Source of the DNA: an uncultured Actinomycetota bacterium
Lineage (GTDB): Bacteria > Actinomycetota > Actinomycetes > Mycobacteriales > Micromonosporaceae
Direction of reading: 5' to 3'
Length of the DNA stretch: 64,000 nt
Assembly (NCBI GenBank): GCA_963803115.1
Contig: CAWDLN010000003.1
Coordinates: 372,304-436,303, forward strand
Shown here piece by piece: positions 10,072-41,700 of this stretch. A program made the position numbers and the translations under genes. The notes under the pieces were generated by a model, which worked only from the letters and a program-made list of their open reading frames with translations, made no database searches and was not told where the DNA came from. The first letter of the stretch is position 1, and every line of letters starts with the position of its first letter.

Positions 10072-11352
10072 TCATTCCACCGACGTCCAATCGGAACGAC
10101 CTCGGCCGTGCCGACGAATGGGGCCGTGCCGACGAATGGGGTGGTGCGCGGGGTCGGTTTCGGGCTGCGGGGATCGTGGCGGCGGAGCGTGCGGCATGGG
10201 CTCTGGCCCGGAATCGTCCAGCAACCGGCCGGCCTCGCCGGTGCGGGCGACGCTGTGCCAGCGCAGGCGGATGCCGGTCAATGCCGTGACGGTCGACTGT
10301 ACGGTCACGAGATACATCAGCTGCCGGTACACGACGAGCTGGAAGGGCAAGCTCCACAGTGGTGTGAGCCGTTCCCGGTCGAGGCGCAGGGCGTACCCGG
10401 CCGCTACCAGTTGTACCGCGGTGTAGCTCAGCCAGACCGCCAGAACCTGCGGTACGGGCAGGAACACCAAGCCGTACACGGCATAGACGTCGACGGCCGG
10501 AGCGCTCAGCGGCAACAGGATCTGGAACAGCACGAGGTACACCAGGCCCCGACGGCCGAGCTTGCCCGCCGCCCCGCGCTCGCGGAGCGACGCGCGGTGC
10601 TTCCAGATCGCCTGCATGGTGCCGTAGCACCACCGGTACCGCTGCCGCCACAGCTGGCGCAGGGTCGACGGCGCTTCGGTCCACGCGATCGCCGTCTCCT
10701 CGTAGACGACCCGCCAGCCGGCGCGCAGGACGGCCATCGTGAGGTCCGTGTCCTCGGCCAGAGTGGTCGCAGGCACGCCGCCGGTCGCGTCGAGGACCTG
10801 GCGGCGGAACGCCCCGATCGCACCCGGCACGGTCGGCATGCACTCGCCGAGGTCGTAGAGACGACGGTCGAGGTTGAATCCCACCACGTACTCGAGGTGT
10901 TGCCAGCGGCCGAGCAGGCCCTTGCGGTTGGCGACCTTCGTGTTGCCGCTGACGGCACCCACATCCGCGTCGGCGAAGGGTTGCACGAGGCGCCCTAGGG
11001 CATCACGCTCGAAGACCGTGTCGCCGTCCACGAGCACGATGAGATCGCCCATCGCCCGGGCAATGCCGGCATTGAGCGCGGCCGGTTTGCCGGCATTGGC
11101 CTGTCGTACAACCCGGACACCCCGCAGGCCCAGCGACCGCACGATATCCGCCGTGCCGTCGGTTGACCCATCATCGACGACGATCACTTCCACCGACGGG
11201 TAGTCGCTCGCGATCAGCGATCGGACCGTGGCGGCGATATTCGCCGCCTCGTTGTATGCGGGCACGACCACCGAGACGGACCCGAGGTATCGCAGGCGGC
11301 TGTGCTCTCGGCTGACGCCGGGCGCGTCGCGCGTGGATCCTCGCGGCCACAA
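10072..11352 (-). CDS. processive family-2 glycosyltransferase (PgaC/IcaA/NodC-like)
   Basis: VVVPAYNEA...VDDGSTDGT...LVDGDT...QRYRWCYG (QxxRW) and C-terminal TM helices; contains an 18-bp tandem duplication (10104-10139) that gives HHPIRRHGPIRRHG. Confidence 0.75.
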   Translation of the reverse strand: MWPRGSTRDAPGVSREHSRLRYLGSVSVVVPAYNEAANIAATVRSLIASDYPSVEVIVVDDGSTDGTADIVRSLGLRGVRVVRQANAGKPAALNAGIARAMGDLIVLVDGDTVFERDALGRLVQPFADADVGAVSGNTKVANRKGLLGRWQHLEYVVGFNLDRRLYDLGECMPTVPGAIGAFRRQVLDATGGVPATTLAEDTDLTMAVLRAGWRVVYEETAIAWTEAPSTLRQLWRQRYRWCYGTMQAIWKHRASLRERGAAGKLGRRGLVYLVLFQILLPLSAPAVDVYAVYGLVFLPVPQVLAVWLSYTAVQLVAAGYALRLDRERLTPLWSLPFQLVVYRQLMYLVTVQSTVTALTGIRLRWHSVARTGEAGRLLDDSGPEPMPHAPPPRSPQPETDPAHHPIRRHGPIRRHGRGRSDWTSVE

Positions 11353-12331
11353 CCTGAATCCCGAGCCGGAGCAGGCCCAGGCCCAACGCGACGAACAGGA
11401 TCAACTCCAGCGCGCTGGACAACCAATTCGCCAGGCGCTGAGCGACGCGAAGGGCATCGCCACGCAGATTGCTGGCGGCGTTGGCGTCCGCGTTGCTCGG
11501 GGGCAGCTGCAGCGCCTCCGAGACCGTTGTGAAGTGGTATCCCTGCTGGCCGAGCTGGGTCAGCAGGGCATCGACGGCAGCAACTGTCTGCGACCGGTCG
11601 CCGCCGCCGTCGTGGAGCATGATTACCGCGCCCTCGCCCGGCGCCGGCGCGGCCGCGGCGACGATGGCGGGCACGCCTGGATTGGCCCAGTCTTTGGTGT
11701 CGCGGTCGGCCAGGACGGTGAGATACCGGCCAGCGGCGACGCTCTTCAATGCGTCGAACTCCTCGGCGCTCATCGCGTCGGGTTCGGACGAGAAGGGCGG
11801 CCGCAGGAGCACACTGTTGACCCCGGCGGCCCCGGCGATCGCGTTCTGGCTGAGGGTCAGCTCGAGATTACGACGCCACTGCGGGATCGTGATGAGCTCG
11901 GCGTGGGTGAACGTGTGCGCCCCGACCTCGTGGCCCTCGGCGACCATGCGACGAACCAGATCCGGGTGATCGTTGACTTCCGAGCCGATGACAAAGAAGG
12001 TGGCGTGCGCGCCGTGTCGAGCAAGCACATCGAGGATCTTCGGTGTCCAGTTCGGGTCCGGTCCGTCGTCAAACGTCAGGGCGATCGAATCGGCGGGCAG
12101 GCGGCGGCTGGACACCTCGCCGTTGCTGTCAATGCGAAGCACGGGTCCACCCGCGAGCACGTTGTCCGGCGCCGCCGCGCGTCCTTCCGCGGGTATCCGC
12201 GGTCCGTCCCCCTCATGACCGACGTGGTGCACATAGCCGGAAAGGCACAACTCGCCGAGCAGAAGTACCAGCCCAAGAACGAGCAGCACCCAGTGCGCGC
12301 GTGGCTCGCGCCGGTTGGTGTGGATGGCCAT
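11171..12331 (-). CDS. polysaccharide deacetylase (NodB/CE4 domain) with N-terminal TM anchor
   Basis: HWVLLVLGLVLLLGELCLSGYV (TM) ... ALTFDDGPDPNWTPKILDVLARHGAHATFFVIG ... a C-terminal TM, then an Arg-rich tail overlapping the GT2 start by 182 nt in another frame. Confidence 0.75.
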   Translation of the reverse strand: MAIHTNRREPRAHWVLLVLGLVLLLGELCLSGYVHHVGHEGDGPRIPAEGRAAAPDNVLAGGPVLRIDSNGEVSSRRLPADSIALTFDDGPDPNWTPKILDVLARHGAHATFFVIGSEVNDHPDLVRRMVAEGHEVGAHTFTHAELITIPQWRRNLELTLSQNAIAGAAGVNSVLLRPPFSSEPDAMSAEEFDALKSVAAGRYLTVLADRDTKDWANPGVPAIVAAAAPAPGEGAVIMLHDGGGDRSQTVAAVDALLTQLGQQGYHFTTVSEALQLPPSNADANAASNLRGDALRVAQRLANWLSSALELILFVALGLGLLRLGIQVVAARIHARRARRQPRAQPPAIPRVRLGGRARIQRGGEYRRHGPIADRERLPVGGSDRRR

Positions 12332-27230: not shown

Positions 27231-27560
27231 ATCCTTCCTGCTCCAGTTCCCAGAGTGCCGGGGTGTTCGGTGGCTCCCAGCCGGGCAATGACACGTGCGC
27301 TTGGCGGGCCCGGTACGTCAGGCCATTGTGGACAACACGGTCTCCGACCTCGTAGGCGACCTGCGGCTGCCAGGTCGGCGTTTCGCCGGAGGCCGTGCAC
27401 CTATCGGTGTCATCCAGTTTCTCGTTCCCGCAGGGTTGCCCGTGAACCGTCGCCCCAGGCTCTCCGTTGCCGGAACGGTGAGGCGATGGATGAAGTTCAT
27501 GGCACGCGCGTGAATGGTCAGGGTCATCTCTGTAGTCGTGCTGCTGTCGGTCGGGGTTGT
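27231..27560 (-). pseudogene. orphan CBM5/12 (chitin-binding type 3) domain remnant without start codon
   Basis: Minus frame ending at TAG (comp 27228-27230): TWQPQVAYEVGDRVVHNGLTYRARQAHVSLPGWEPPNTPALWELEQEG fits the ChtBD3 consensus W..Y..GD.V.hNG..Y.A....WEP....ALW. The frame opens right after a TAG and has no start codon or upstream catalytic domain. Confidence 0.4.
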
Positions 27561-28108
27561 CCTAGCTACTACGATCCCGGCCGATGCAAAGCTCATCGCT
27601 GACATCGATGCGGCGCGAAATACGCCCCGTTCCGCGTTTGGGATTCTCAACTGCGATGGGCCCGGATCGATCAGCGTGGTCACCGATGAGTCCCGTGGCA
27701 AGGTCTGGCGGTTCCACAAGCCTGCCGACTCCAGTCGTTGTGAGGCGCACGGATTCAAGGTGAACGGTTCCATGTTCGCGACCCGCAACAACGCGACGTA
27801 CTGCTCTGCGTGGTCGAGCCGGATGTCGACGGTCGTGGATACGAACGCGGTGTTCCACGACGCCGGCGCCGGCAACGTCGAGCTCCCGTCAGCCGACACC
27901 GACCAAGTCGCCGCGGCCGACCCCGTCCGACGCTGGCAACACCCAAGCAGGGGGCCCCGAAGCCGGCGACCCCGAAGCCGGCGAGGTCGTGACGGCCAAC
28001 AATGCCTCTCTATCCAAGGCCTTTATCGCCGCCGCCGTCCTGCTCTGTGCCATCCCGGTCGCGCTCGGATTCGTTTCGGCTCGGCGGCGAAGGGCGCGCA
28101 ACGATTGA
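27514..28108 (+). pseudogene. secreted protein (signal peptide) whose C-terminal membrane anchor lies in the +1 frame (apparent frameshift near 27890)
   Basis: Frame 1: MVRVISVVVLLSVGVVLATTIPADA...WRFHKPADSSRCEAHGFKVNGSMFATRNNATYCSAW..., then an Arg-rich junk tail. Frame +1: PTPTKSPRPTPS...ANNASLSKAFIAAAVLLCAIPVALGFVSARRRRARND-stop (TM plus basic tail). Contains a 15-bp x2 tandem repeat at 27955-27984. Confidence 0.4.
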
Positions 28109-28109
28109 C

Positions 28110-28810
28110 TTAGTCCTTAGTGGACGGTCGCAGCGCAGGGGATAGTCCGAGCACAGTGGATCGTTGGAGGCTCGGTCCCGTCACCAGCGCGAAGGCTAAC
28201 CCGGTCAGTGTGCCAACGACCACGAGGGGCCGAGCCGATGGAAAGTCCTCGGGGCGCAACCAATGCACAACCTCGACGAGACCAAGCCTCGCGACGATGA
28301 ATCCTGCCATCAGACCGAGGATCAAGCCACCCAGACTGAGCCATGGCCATGCGCCCGACCGGTCCATGAATCGTCGCAGGACGAGCCATTGGCAGGCGCC
28401 CGGCAGTAGGCCGACGAGCAGACCGACCGGCACGCCGATGAGCACCATGCGTGTCCATCCGATGTCGGGTCCAACGTCGGAGATCTTTCCGCCGATTGCT
28501 CCGGACAGGGCGCCGCCCGACCGGCCGACCAGAATCCAACCCAGCATCGTGGCGGGAATCCACCAGACCGACACCCGCAGTGCTCGGCGAAGAACCAACC
28601 ACCGTGCTGCTCCGATGAGCAGGCCAAAGATCGTCAGGCTGATGGCGGGTGTTCACGGCCTCGATCCGGGCGGCTCGCCCGGCCGACGTGGTGACGCCGA
28701 AGTATGGCTGCATCTGCTGCCGCTGGAGGGCGCCGACCACGGCTCCGGCGAGGGCGAAACCGCCAACGTTGGCGACCAGCCTGAGCCACCGGGTCTGGCG
28801 CGTCTCCATG
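28110..28810 (-). pseudogene. multi-TM membrane protein split over two frames (frameshift near 28640-28660)
   Basis: Frame A: METRQTRWLRLVANVGGFALAGAVVGAL...RIEAV. Frame B: ISLTIFGLLIGAARWLVLRRALRVSVWWIPATMLGWILVG... to the stop at 28110. Paralog of the intact gene at 61989-62603. Confidence 0.45.
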
Positions 28811-28822
28811 TGCACTCCAGGG

Positions 28823-31179
28823 TCACTCGGTGAGGCCAGCGCGGCGTAGTGCGTCGGCGAGGGCCGTGTTGGATCCGTCGGAGGTCGGCCCCCCGCGGCC
28901 GCGCCCCGGGGCAGGCGGTCGACCACCCCGATCGTCGCGTTGGTCTCGACCGTCCCGGGGCGATCGACCGGGGCGAGCCGAGGTTGCCTCGTCGTCGAGG
29001 CGCAGGGTGAGGGATATCCGCTTGCGGGGGATGTCGACGTCGAGCACCTTCACCCGTACGACGTCCCCTGGTTTGACCACATCGCGCGGATCCTTGACAT
29101 AGGTGTGGGACAGGGCCGAGACGTGCACCAGACCGTCCTGGTGGACGCCGACGTCGACGAATGCGCCAAACGCGGCGACATTTGTCACGACGCCCTCGAG
29201 CACCATCCCGGCACGGAGGTCGGCGAGCGTCTCGACGCCGTCGGCGAAGGTGGCCGTCTTGAACGCCGGCCGAGGATCGCGTCCGGGCTTCTCCAGTTCC
29301 CTGAGGATGTCCGTGACGGTCGGCAGGCCGAAGGTGTCGTCGACGAACTCGTCCGGCTTCAGTCCACGAAGGACGGACGAGTTGCCGATCAGCACCTTGA
29401 GGTCGGTGCCCGTCGTCCGAAGGATCCGCCGTACCACGGGGTAGGCCTCCGGGTGCACGCTCGAGGCGTCCAGGGGGTCGTCACCCCCGGGGATGCGCAG
29501 GAAGCCGGCGCACTGCTCGAACGCCTTCGGGCCCAGCCGCGGGACCGACTTCAGTGCCGTCCGTGTACGGAATGGTCCGTTTGCGTCGCGGTGCGCCACG
29601 ATGTTGCCGGCGAGGCCCTCGCCGATCCCGGAAACCCTTGTCAGCAAGGGCACCGACGCGGTGTTCACGTCGACGCCAACCGCGTTGACGCAGTCCTCGA
29701 CGACCGCGTCGAGGCTGCGGGAGAGTTTGATCTCGGCGAGATCGTGCTGGTACTGGCCGACGCCGATCGACTTCGGGTCGATCTTCACCAGCTCGGCCAA
29801 GCGGGTCCTGCAGTCGCCGTGCGATCGAGACCGCGCCCCGCAACGACACATCCAGCCCGGGCAGCTCGGCCGACGCATAGGCCGACGCCGAGTAGACCGA
29901 GGCGCCGGCCTCGGAAACGACGATCTTGGTCAGGCCGGACACCAACGAGATGAGATCGCCGGCCAGCTTGTCGGTCTCCCGGGATGCGGTGCCGTTGCCG
30001 ATCGCGACCAACTCGACCTGGTGCGCCTTGGCGAGCCGGGCGAGAGTAGCCAATGCACTCTTGCCAGCGCTGCTGCGGCACGTGGGGGTAGATGGTGTCG
30101 GTCGCGACGACCTTGCCGGTGGCATCGACGACGGCCACCTTCACGCCGGTCCGGAATCCGGGGTCGAGGCCCATGGTGGCGCGGGTTCCGGCGGGAGCGG
30201 CGAGGAGCAGGTCGCGCAGATTGGCCGCGAAGACCCGTACCGCTTCGTCCTCGGCCGCCTGGAACAGGCGCATCCGAACGTCGATGCCGAGATGCGCGAG
30301 GATCCGCGTCCGCCAGGCCCAGCGGACCGTGTCGCCGAGCCACTTGTCGGCCGCGCGTCCGCGGTCCGCGATGCCGAACCGTACCGCGATCTCTTGCTCG
30401 TACTAGTCGGCCCGTCCGATCGCCGGCGCCTGGTCCGGCTCCATCGACAGATCGAGGATCTCCTCCTTCTCGCCCCGGAACATCGCCAGGATCCGGTGCG
30501 AGGGCAGTTTGGTGAACGGTTCCGAGAACTCGAAGTAGTCGGCGAACTTGGCCCCCGCTTCCTGCTTGCCCGGCCGTACCGTTGCCGCCACCCGGCCCTT
30601 CGCCCACATCTTCTCGCGCAGCGAACCGATCAGGTCCGCGTCTTCGGCGAAGCGCTCGACGAGGATCGCCCGCGCACCCTCGAGCGCCGCCGCGGCGTCG
30701 GCCACACCCCGGTCAGCGTCGACATAGGCCAGTGCGGTCGCCAGGGGTCCAGCGTCGGATCGCCGAGCAGCGCGTCGGCGAGTGGTTCGAGGCCAGCCTC
30801 CCGGGCGATCTGCGCCTTCGTGCGGCGCTTGGGCTTGTACGGCAGGTAGATGTCTTCGAGACGCGCCTTGGAGTCGGCGGCCATGAGCTGGTCGAGCAGC
30901 GCGTCGTCGAGCTTGCCCTGCGAGCGGATCGACTCGATGATCGCGGCCCGGCGGTCCTCCATCTCCCGGAGGTAGCGCAATCGCTCCTCGAGCGTGCGAA
31001 GCTGGGCGTCATCCAGCGACCCCGTGACCTCCTTGCGGTAGCGCGCGATGAACGGCACCGTCGCCCCGCCGTCGAGCAATTCGACCGCGGCGGCCACCTG
31101 TCCGTCGCGAACGCCGAGCTCATCCGCGATCCGCTGGCTGATCTTGCGCGCGGTGTCCGCTGGGGTCGCGTTGCTCACT
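28823..31179 (-). pseudogene. tex: transcription accessory protein Tex, disrupted by three frameshifts and one in-frame amber codon
   Basis: Pieces in different frames align colinearly with E. coli Tex: Tex_[15 protein letters not shown]; YqgF MRLFQAAEDEAV...[20 protein letters not shown]; [15 protein letters not shown]; HhH/S1 [20 protein letters not shown]...[17 protein letters not shown]. Lesions at about 30744-30747, 30403-30405 (cta, i.e. TAG), 30064-30075 and 29797-29801. Confidence 0.8.
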
Positions 31180-32700: not shown

Positions 32701-33500
32701 TTACGGTTTGCGGCCAACTCCGGCGAACTCGGAGCACGGCGTGGTGTCGTTGCCGTCGGGGCGCCATTGCGAGCAGGTGACGATACCCGGCTCCAATAGC
32801 TCCAGACCCTCGAAGAAGGCGGCGATCCCTTGTGGATTACGGGCCGTGATCGGAGCCGACCCGCTGGAGTTCCACATCTGCATCGCCCGGTCGACTGCTT
32901 CGGGGTTGACCTCCATCGTTGGATGGGAGATCGCGAGGTAACTGCCCGACGGTACGGCCGACACGAGTCGGCGGACGATCGTCTGCGCCTTCTCGTCGTC
33001 GACCACGAAGTTCAGGATGCCCAGGAGCATGACGGCGACCGGCTGGTTGAAGTTGAGCGTGAGCGAAGCGTCCTCGAGAATCCGGTCCGGATCGCGTAGA
33101 TCAGCGTCGATGTAGTCGGTTTTGCCCTGAGGTGTACTCGTCAACAGCGCCCGCGCATGTACCAGAACCATCGGGTCGTTGTCGACGTAGACGATGCGGC
33201 TGTCGGGCGCGGTCGCCTGGGCCACCTCATGGGTGTTGTTCGCGGTCGGTAGACCCGTGCCGATGTCGAGGAATTGTCGGACGCCGGCCTCGCCGGCGAG
33301 AAACCGTACCGCTCGACCCAGAAACCACGGTTGAACCGAGCGGACTGGACCAGCTCGGGCATGTACGTCAGGACCTGGTCGGCCGCTTCGCGGTCCACCG
33401 CGAAGTTGTCCTTGCCCCCCAGTAGGTAATTCCACAGTCGCGCCGAGTGGGCGACCGTGGTGTCCAGCTTGGACAGTTGTTCGGCAACAGGATCAGTCAT
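32701..33500 (-). pseudogene. DUF574-type SAM-dependent methyltransferase with a frameshift near 33322-33325
   Basis: N-terminus MTDPVAEQLSKLDTTVAHSARLWNYLLGGKDNFAVDREAADQ...ARFNRGF, then a frame change to LGRAVRFLAGEAGVRQFLDIGTGLPT...; a T/A homopolymer at the junction. Confidence 0.6.
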
Positions 33501-39993: not shown

Positions 39994-40140
39994 GGATGTA
40001 GAGGCCGTGGCGTCACACCTGACGGTGATATAACGACTACGCGCCGCGCGTTCGGTGGTGCCCGCGCGCGTTGACTGTTAGTTTGACGGGCCTGACCGGA
40101 AACCACCCCCGTTAACTGGTTCGAGCCCCCTGGGGATGCC

Positions 40141-41700
40141 TTGCCACGGTTGCGCACGTGTGTCATATCGCTGCTCGGAGTGCTGCTGATTACCGGCTGC
40201 ACGTCTAGTCCAGAGGCGCCTGTCGATACGACCCCGCCCGATCGGGCGCAGTCGCGAACAGCTCTCCCCGACGGTGACACCACGGTCGTGGACGGCGTCG
40301 GTGCAGTGGGGCTCGCGTTGGCCACAAGTCGGGCCATCTTTCAGAGTGCGCCGGCCGTCGTGTTGATCGCGGAGGGCGAGAACGCCGACTTCGAGCGGGC
40401 CGGTAAGGCGGCCGTGGATCTCGGCGTACCGCTGCTTGTCGCGCCCGCCGTGGCCAGCCCGAGCGGATCGGCGGAGCCGAGCGCGACGCTGGCACCCGCG
40501 GGCGGCCAGGAGCCGGACGCGGACCTGCGTACCGAGCTGACCAGGCTTGCCCCCCGAACGGTGGTGGCGGTCGGTGCCGCGGCCACGGCCTGGGCTCAGC
40601 GCGCCTCCCTGACCGTGACCACACTGCCCGACTCGGTGGATGACCCGGTGCTTCCGGACGTACGGCCGCCGGCACCGCTGGAGTCGTTGTTGGTCCTCGC
40701 GCGGGGCGACGGCAGCGACGCGGCGGCGATCGTTACGGCGCGGGCCAGCGGTGCCCAGGTTCTGACTCTCAGCGAGCCGGATCCGCGCGCGTCCAGCGAA
40801 TCCGTCAAGGCGGTGGCCGCGGCGCCGATCGCTCACGTACTCGCGATCGGTGGCGCATTCGGGCCGGCCGACCTACTTCGCCGCCGGCTCGCAGGCCGCG
40901 ACCGGCGTCGAGCTGCCCGGCGGCGGCCAGGTGATCTTCCCCGGCCGGCGCATGGTCGCGCTGTACGGGCACCCGGGTGACACAGTGCTCGGAGCACTTG
41001 GTGAGCAGCGCTCGACGCCGCGATCGCCCGGGCGAAGAAGGTGGCGGCGCGTAGGCGCGCTCGTGGGCGAGCCGGTGGTACCGACATTCGAGATCATCGC
41101 CACCGTGGCCGCGGCGTCGCCGGCTCGGACGGCAACTACTCCAACGAGACGCCGGAGTCCGAGCTCGCCCCTGGATCGACGCGGCCAAGGCCGGGATCTA
41201 CGTGGTGCTCGACCTGCAACCCGGCCGGTCCGATTTCCTCACCCAGGCGAAGCTCTACGCCGACCTGCTGCTCACCGCATGTCGGGCTCGCGCTGGACCC
41301 GGAGTGGCACATGAAGCCAGACGCAGGTGCCGATGGTGCATCGGCTCGGTCAGCGCCGACGAGATCAACCAGACCGGCCAGTGGTTGGCCAGTTCACCGG
41401 GAGCACAACTTGCCGCAGAAGGTCCTCATGCTGCACCAGTTCCGCTCGCGATGATCTCGAACCGAGCGTCGCTCGTCACCGAGCTACGACGAGCTGCAGG
41501 TGGTCATCCATGCCGACGGGTTCGGCTCACCCGGCGCGAAGATCGAACACCTGGAATGGACTTCACATCGATGCGCCGCCGAACATCCATTGGGGCTGGA
41601 AGAACTTCTACGACGAGGACAAGCCCACATTCACGCCGACGCAGACGATGGCGGTCGAACCCACGCCGGTCTTCGTGTCCTACCAGTAGCTCCCGTCACG
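40141..41700 (+). pseudogene. lipoprotein (lipobox LLITGC) with cell-wall-binding-like repeats and a C-terminal putative hydrolase domain; reading frame switches about 11 times between 40865 and 41560
   Basis: Intact frame 40141-40865. After that, GC3-rich protein-like segments alternate frames: TYFAAGSQAATGVELPGGGQVIFPG / AALDAAIARAKKVAA / VGALVGEPVVPTFEIIATVAAAS / GSDGNYSNETPESELAP / IYVVLDLQPGRSDFLTQAKLYADLLL / PHVGLALDPEWHMKPDA / GSVSADEINQTGQWLA / NLPQKVLMLHQF / SYDELQVVIHADGFGSPGAKIEH / NGLHIDAPPNIHWGWKNFYDEDKPTFTPTQTMAVEPTPVFVSYQ-stop. Confidence 0.55.

Follow-up and report, generated by a model that had tools for sequence, protein, structure and literature searches.

The stretch of DNA analysed here (the window, 64,000 nucleotides of actinobacterial DNA with 67.5% G+C) contains a lipoprotein gene that is sound at one end and broken at the other. 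The open reading frame starting at position 40141 stays in a single frame up to a stop at 40978–40980, and beyond 40980 protein-like peptides continue in alternating frames as far as a TAG codon at 41687–41689. The locus raises the question of whether the gene is broken in the organism or only in the sequence that was deposited. A preliminary description, made from the letters of the sequence and its translated reading frames, had noticed about eleven frame changes in the C-terminal half and left two readings standing side by side, namely a locally very low-quality stretch of the assembly, or something unusual such as a hypermutated or recently inactivated gene. The gene, its parts and the damaged region are located as follows.

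40141–41689, plus strand: lipoprotein gene with a TTG start and a TAG stop (41687–41689), about 519 codons once the indels are undone.
40141–40200, plus strand: signal peptide with the lipobox LLITG-C, read from the translation; the lipobox cysteine, Cys20, lies at 40198–40200.
40270–40890, plus strand: undamaged N-terminal half, composed of alpha/beta units (AF2 secondary structure) with weak CWB2 similarity, gapless against the syntenic relative L161.
40892–41545, plus strand: indel patch, 14 indels private to the window, inside the conserved C-terminal domain, a predicted TIM barrel.

When the blocks were stitched together, the resulting protein matched, over its full length, a family of proteins of about 515 amino acids (6573 hits at E ≤ 1e-3), with 80% identity to the top match. 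Family hits that carry a name are annotated as "hypothetical protein" or "lipoprotein" and belong to Micromonosporaceae, Catellatospora and Actinopolymorpha, and the family has neither a Pfam match nor an NCBIfam model. The preliminary description had credited the intact N-terminal half with a lipobox and with four cell-wall-binding-like repeats. The lipobox (LLITGC) was borne out, Cys20 being invariant across a family alignment of 60 sequences. The repeats are weakly supported: no Pfam match was obtained, and a profile of 60 family members searched against the PDB gave for the N-terminal part a weak match to Clostridioides difficile Cwp6 (5j72, E = 2e-4), with Cwp8 at 0.05. The fold prediction, which is confident, describes the protein as a CWB2-like N-terminal module followed by a C-terminal TIM barrel, a candidate glycoside-hydrolase-like barrel. 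Downstream of the lipoprotein gene, between 41696 and 43335 on the minus strand, lie two genes, one for a protein of 263 amino acids of unknown function and one for a methyltransferase of 261 amino acids; the contig bearing the homologue P0106 has both in this order too, so that local synteny is conserved across relatives.

In a frameshift-tolerant dynamic-programming alignment, the kind of homology search that the preliminary description had proposed for counting the indels, the homologues P0001, P0106 and P0002 required 12 changes of frame in the window DNA, all of them within 40894–41545; the first 753 nt of the gene (40141–40893) required none. DNA alignments with five metagenomic homologues, together with the pairwise alignment to L161, refined this to 14 events within about 650 nt (40892–41545), 13 of them frame-changing and one a 3-nt deletion, which corresponds to roughly one frame change per 50 nt. 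Eleven are deletions of 1–3 nt (17 nt in total, including four of 2 nt and one of 3 nt) and three are insertions of a single G, giving a net loss of 14 nt. Unless indicated otherwise, each of the following was placed by both the homologue and the L161 alignments.

40892–40893, plus strand: deletion of 2 nt.
41009–41010, plus strand: deletion of 1 nt.
41053–41054, plus strand: deletion of 2 nt.
41111–41117, plus strand: deletion of 1 nt, its placement ambiguous by a few nucleotides.
41166–41167, plus strand: deletion of 1 nt.
41187–41192, plus strand: in-frame deletion of 3 nt (one codon).
41270–41271, plus strand: deletion of 2 nt.
41323, plus strand: insertion of 1 nt (G).
41339–41340, plus strand: deletion of 2 nt.
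41390 and 41398, plus strand: two deletions of 1 nt each, 8 nt apart, resolved in the L161 alignment; the distant homologues give a single −2.
41443–41444, plus strand: deletion of 1 nt.
41481, plus strand: insertion of 1 nt (G).
41545, plus strand: insertion of 1 nt (G), placed by the homologue alignments; L161 ends before this site.

The roughly eleven frame changes first described are therefore real and an undercount, a 15-nt block and a split pair having been missed, and the peptides quoted at the time are present in the blocks to which they had been assigned. Undoing the indels left no stop in any corrected block and raised third-position GC to 0.89, compared with 0.65–0.71 at a fixed phase. 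The C-terminal region has a constant length of 864 nt in the metagenomic homologues and measures 850 nt in the window, and in an alignment of six DNA sequences each length difference was private to the window. About 11 kb of the window's coding DNA, checked in a comparable way, holds 6 frameshifts; against this background, the Poisson probability of at least 13 frame changes in 653 nt is about 1e-16.

A syntenic comparison came from L161, a locus on a 105-kb JGI contig (JGI 3300044699, Ga0418691_56730), which was reached by searching with the neighbouring tex gene through its homologue P0123 (93% identity). L161 is syntenic with the window over approximately 27.3–41.5 kb at 83–87% nucleotide identity, aligns without a gap across 40126–40892, and carries an intact orthologue of 513 amino acids that has the same acyl-CoA synthetase gene as its neighbour. 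P0106, which stems from a second sample, is identical to this orthologue over the C-terminal part. Neither L161 nor any of the five metagenomic homologues has a single one of the indels seen in the lipoprotein gene of the window, the site at 41545 lying outside L161. Protein-guided scans returned no copy from the same species, the best matches reaching 60% in genomes and 80% in metagenomes. Three intact proteins of the window had no exact match on record, a 44-mer was absent from the genome collection, and a degenerate DNA pattern had no match in metagenomes.

Real pseudogene decay would be expected to leave substitutions at all codon positions and to erode conserved residues, and the preliminary description had argued in the same sense that ordinary decay would also blur the sequence. 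This argument held when it was put into numbers. A comparison that took three more distant homologues as outgroup assigned 59 private substitutions to the window and 60 to the intact homologue L081; with L081 as outgroup, 45 substitutions are specific to the window and 44 to L161 in the damaged half, the corresponding counts for the intact half being 43 and 52. For the window and L161, dN/dS amounts to 0.165 in the intact and 0.181 in the damaged half, with dS values of 0.58 and 0.55. A chimeric join with another lineage was ruled out, since dS to L161 is equal in both halves. In the alignment of 60 members, the repaired protein violates none of the 98 invariant columns; of the 178 columns with a conservation of 90% or more it violates 4, and the median for the family is 3. 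The signature of a decaying pseudogene, namely surplus substitutions, a relaxed dN/dS and lost conserved residues, was accordingly not found, a small excess of unique residues apart: 14 residues of the damaged half are unique to the window, 5 of them adjoining an indel, compared with 3–4 in L161 and P0001. As this leaves at most about 9 window-unique residues away from the indels, additional substitutions, if any, would not be as numerous as the indels. Bacteria naturally acquire several times more substitutions than small indels, and the indels arise mainly in homopolymers and short repeats. The ratio of indels to substitutions in the lipoprotein patch is the reverse of this pattern.

The local context of the indel sites was equally unremarkable. 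Homopolymers are not enriched there, the longest run being at most 4 and the same as in the background, and no repeats or hairpins were found at the lipoprotein sites, which share no motif in the L161 alignment. Neither GC content nor skew is anomalous at the patch, and no paralogue able to cause a mis-assembly was found within the window. Given the lack of homopolymer context and the deletions of 2 and 3 nt, the error spectrum does not indicate a single sequencing platform. A hypermutated or recently inactivated gene, the other reading initially offered, would call for a ratio of indels to substitutions, and for a sequence context, that do not resemble known natural mutation.

The preliminary description had also warned that, if the lipoprotein gene should prove to be a single reading frame, the other frameshifts of the window would need re-evaluation, and such frameshifts did turn up: five in tex, one in a gene for a SAM-dependent methyltransferase and one in a deacetylase–glycosyltransferase fusion. 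The gene tex, which encodes an RNA-binding transcriptional accessory protein (31178–28829, minus strand), contains five single-nucleotide indels within 940 nt, as established by frameshift-tolerant alignment to P0121 and P0122 (90–91% amino acid identity) and by pairwise alignment to L161.

29801–30743, minus strand: second indel patch, in tex, with −1 at 30743, +1 at 30420, −1 at 30404, +1 at 30057 and +1 at 29801.

An in-frame stop in tex was considered as a nonsense substitution and rejected, as it lies inside a shifted stretch of 16 nt between a compensating +1/−1 pair. The methyltransferase gene (about 32704–33500, minus strand) is split into two frames by a 1-nt deletion near 33322–33326, and its orthologue in L161 is intact (266 amino acids, Methyltransf_19). 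Open reading frames for a polysaccharide deacetylase and a GT2 glycosyltransferase (10072–12331, minus strand) share about 180 nt, read in different frames; in their closest homologues the two parts form one fused protein of 650–740 amino acids, and undoing one frameshift near 11278–11311 restores this form. Of the other window genes that were inspected by eye, most read as single open frames, and further same-strand frame switches proposed by a codon-usage frame HMM proved on inspection to be mostly ordinary neighbouring genes. In an ORF of 199 amino acids (27514–28113, plus strand), the coding signal switches frame near 27928, and the segment 27855–28100 shows many odd-length gaps against L161, which could represent either a further error patch or a divergent tail.

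The L161 contig turned out to carry private frameshifts of its own, two in an AHSA1 gene (about 3713 and 3853), one in a DUF5753 regulator gene and one at the end of tex, the remaining positions being about 7180 and 12108. In the window, each of these three regions is intact or reads in one frame. These private frameshifts indicate that assemblies of this lineage are error-prone, and two independent assemblies of related organisms in which different conserved genes are broken are what would be expected from consensus errors rather than from shared biology.

The indels of the lipoprotein gene are present in the sequence, clustered and private to the window, and they come without an excess of substitutions or a loss of conserved residues. 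Judging from these sequence comparisons, we consider it very probable that the frame changes are errors of the deposited consensus, locally of low quality within an error-prone assembly, and that their cause is technical. Private indels, the absence of extra substitutions, the retention of invariant residues and the second patch in tex all support the suspicion of a poor stretch of assembly that had been voiced at the outset. The living cell then most likely has an intact lipoprotein gene, which would encode about 519 amino acids. About 0.65 kb (40892–41545) probably drew on one or a handful of poor, error-prone reads, as where long-read coverage is thin or polishing is missing; a local drop in coverage, a stretch that escaped polishing or a raw long read spanning a gap are possible causes. 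Such a patch would retain read-level indel errors at about 2% of positions between flanks of good quality, and the same process could have produced the weaker patch in tex and the isolated single-base frameshifts elsewhere.

Indels are the dominant error of long reads, break up genes and become worse at low coverage (PMC8103633; PMC12007338). Known errors of long-read or low-coverage assemblies resemble the present case in that the indels are short, break conserved genes, are absent from relatives and are unaccompanied by matching substitutions, with single events scattered elsewhere on the contig and a related metagenomic contig having its own. The present case differs from them in that 14 events fall locally within 650 nt of an otherwise mostly clean window and show no homopolymer bias. 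Several observations count against consensus errors as the explanation. Since little else in the window is damaged, a special local cause has to be assumed; the four 2-nt deletions, the 3-nt deletion and the lack of homopolymer context single out no sequencing platform; and a very recent loss of constraint would produce the small excess of unique amino acids seen in the damaged half.

This last point leads to the possibility that the gene is a genuine, very recently inactivated pseudogene carrying real small indels with a deletion bias, a reading that we regard as improbable. Pseudogenes of reductive genomes such as that of Mycobacterium leprae likewise contain several frameshifts per gene and more deletions than insertions, but the gene studied here differs from them in lacking a substitution excess, in keeping its invariant residues and an unchanged dN/dS, in a GC3 that is still 0.89 and in damage limited to part of the gene. 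While the predominance of deletions over insertions (11 versus 3) agrees with the deletional bias expected of bacterial pseudogenes, and the other disrupted genes of the window as well as the slight excess of unique amino acid changes in the damaged half would fit recent inactivation, it is difficult to see these 14 indels arising with practically no additional substitutions (45 versus 44), with 98 of 98 invariant residues retained and with dN/dS unchanged. Neither the natural preponderance of substitutions over indels nor the preference for homopolymers and repeats is seen, the damage begins at a sharp edge inside the gene after 753 gapless nucleotides, and the orthologue of the closest relative is intact, in two samples.

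A very recent, localised burst of indel-only mutation, for example by one or a few rounds of highly error-prone repair synthesis, in two patches of about 0.7–0.9 kb (the C-terminal half of the lipoprotein gene and tex) would account for the sharp edges of the two discrete clusters, for damage that is nearly indel-only and for the clean remainder of the window. We give it only a slight chance, as the sites have no common motif, repeat or hairpin, the private frameshifts in other genes of the L161 contig point to a technical cause, and we know of no bacterial polymerase or repair pathway that would leave indels at about 2% of positions and yet no substitutions. Recoding during expression, whether by programmed ribosomal frameshifting or by transcriptional slippage, has nothing in its favour beyond the fact that every corrected block is open. 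It would require 13 shifts of mixed sign and size at sites without slippery runs (longest at most 4, the background level), and no shift is conserved in any relative, so that we regard it as effectively refuted.

With consensus errors as the most probable explanation, the repaired protein can be considered as a member of its family. This very large actinobacterial family, with more than 6500 hits and 98 invariant positions, is a candidate new domain family, and a reasonable guess is that the protein may be a lipoprotein enzyme of the cell envelope that acts on or processes glycans. Cwp19 of C. difficile and other CWB2 cell-wall proteins offer comparison systems for the protein, not for the frameshifts. 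For the contig itself, the finding has its value as a quality flag. Gene calls made from it will be fragmented unless frameshift-aware correction or re-polishing is applied, and the frameshifts in tex, the SAM-dependent methyltransferase gene and the deacetylase–GT2 fusion call for the same caution as those of the lipoprotein gene, which is not to be counted among pseudogenes or taken as evidence of genome decay or hypermutation in this organism.
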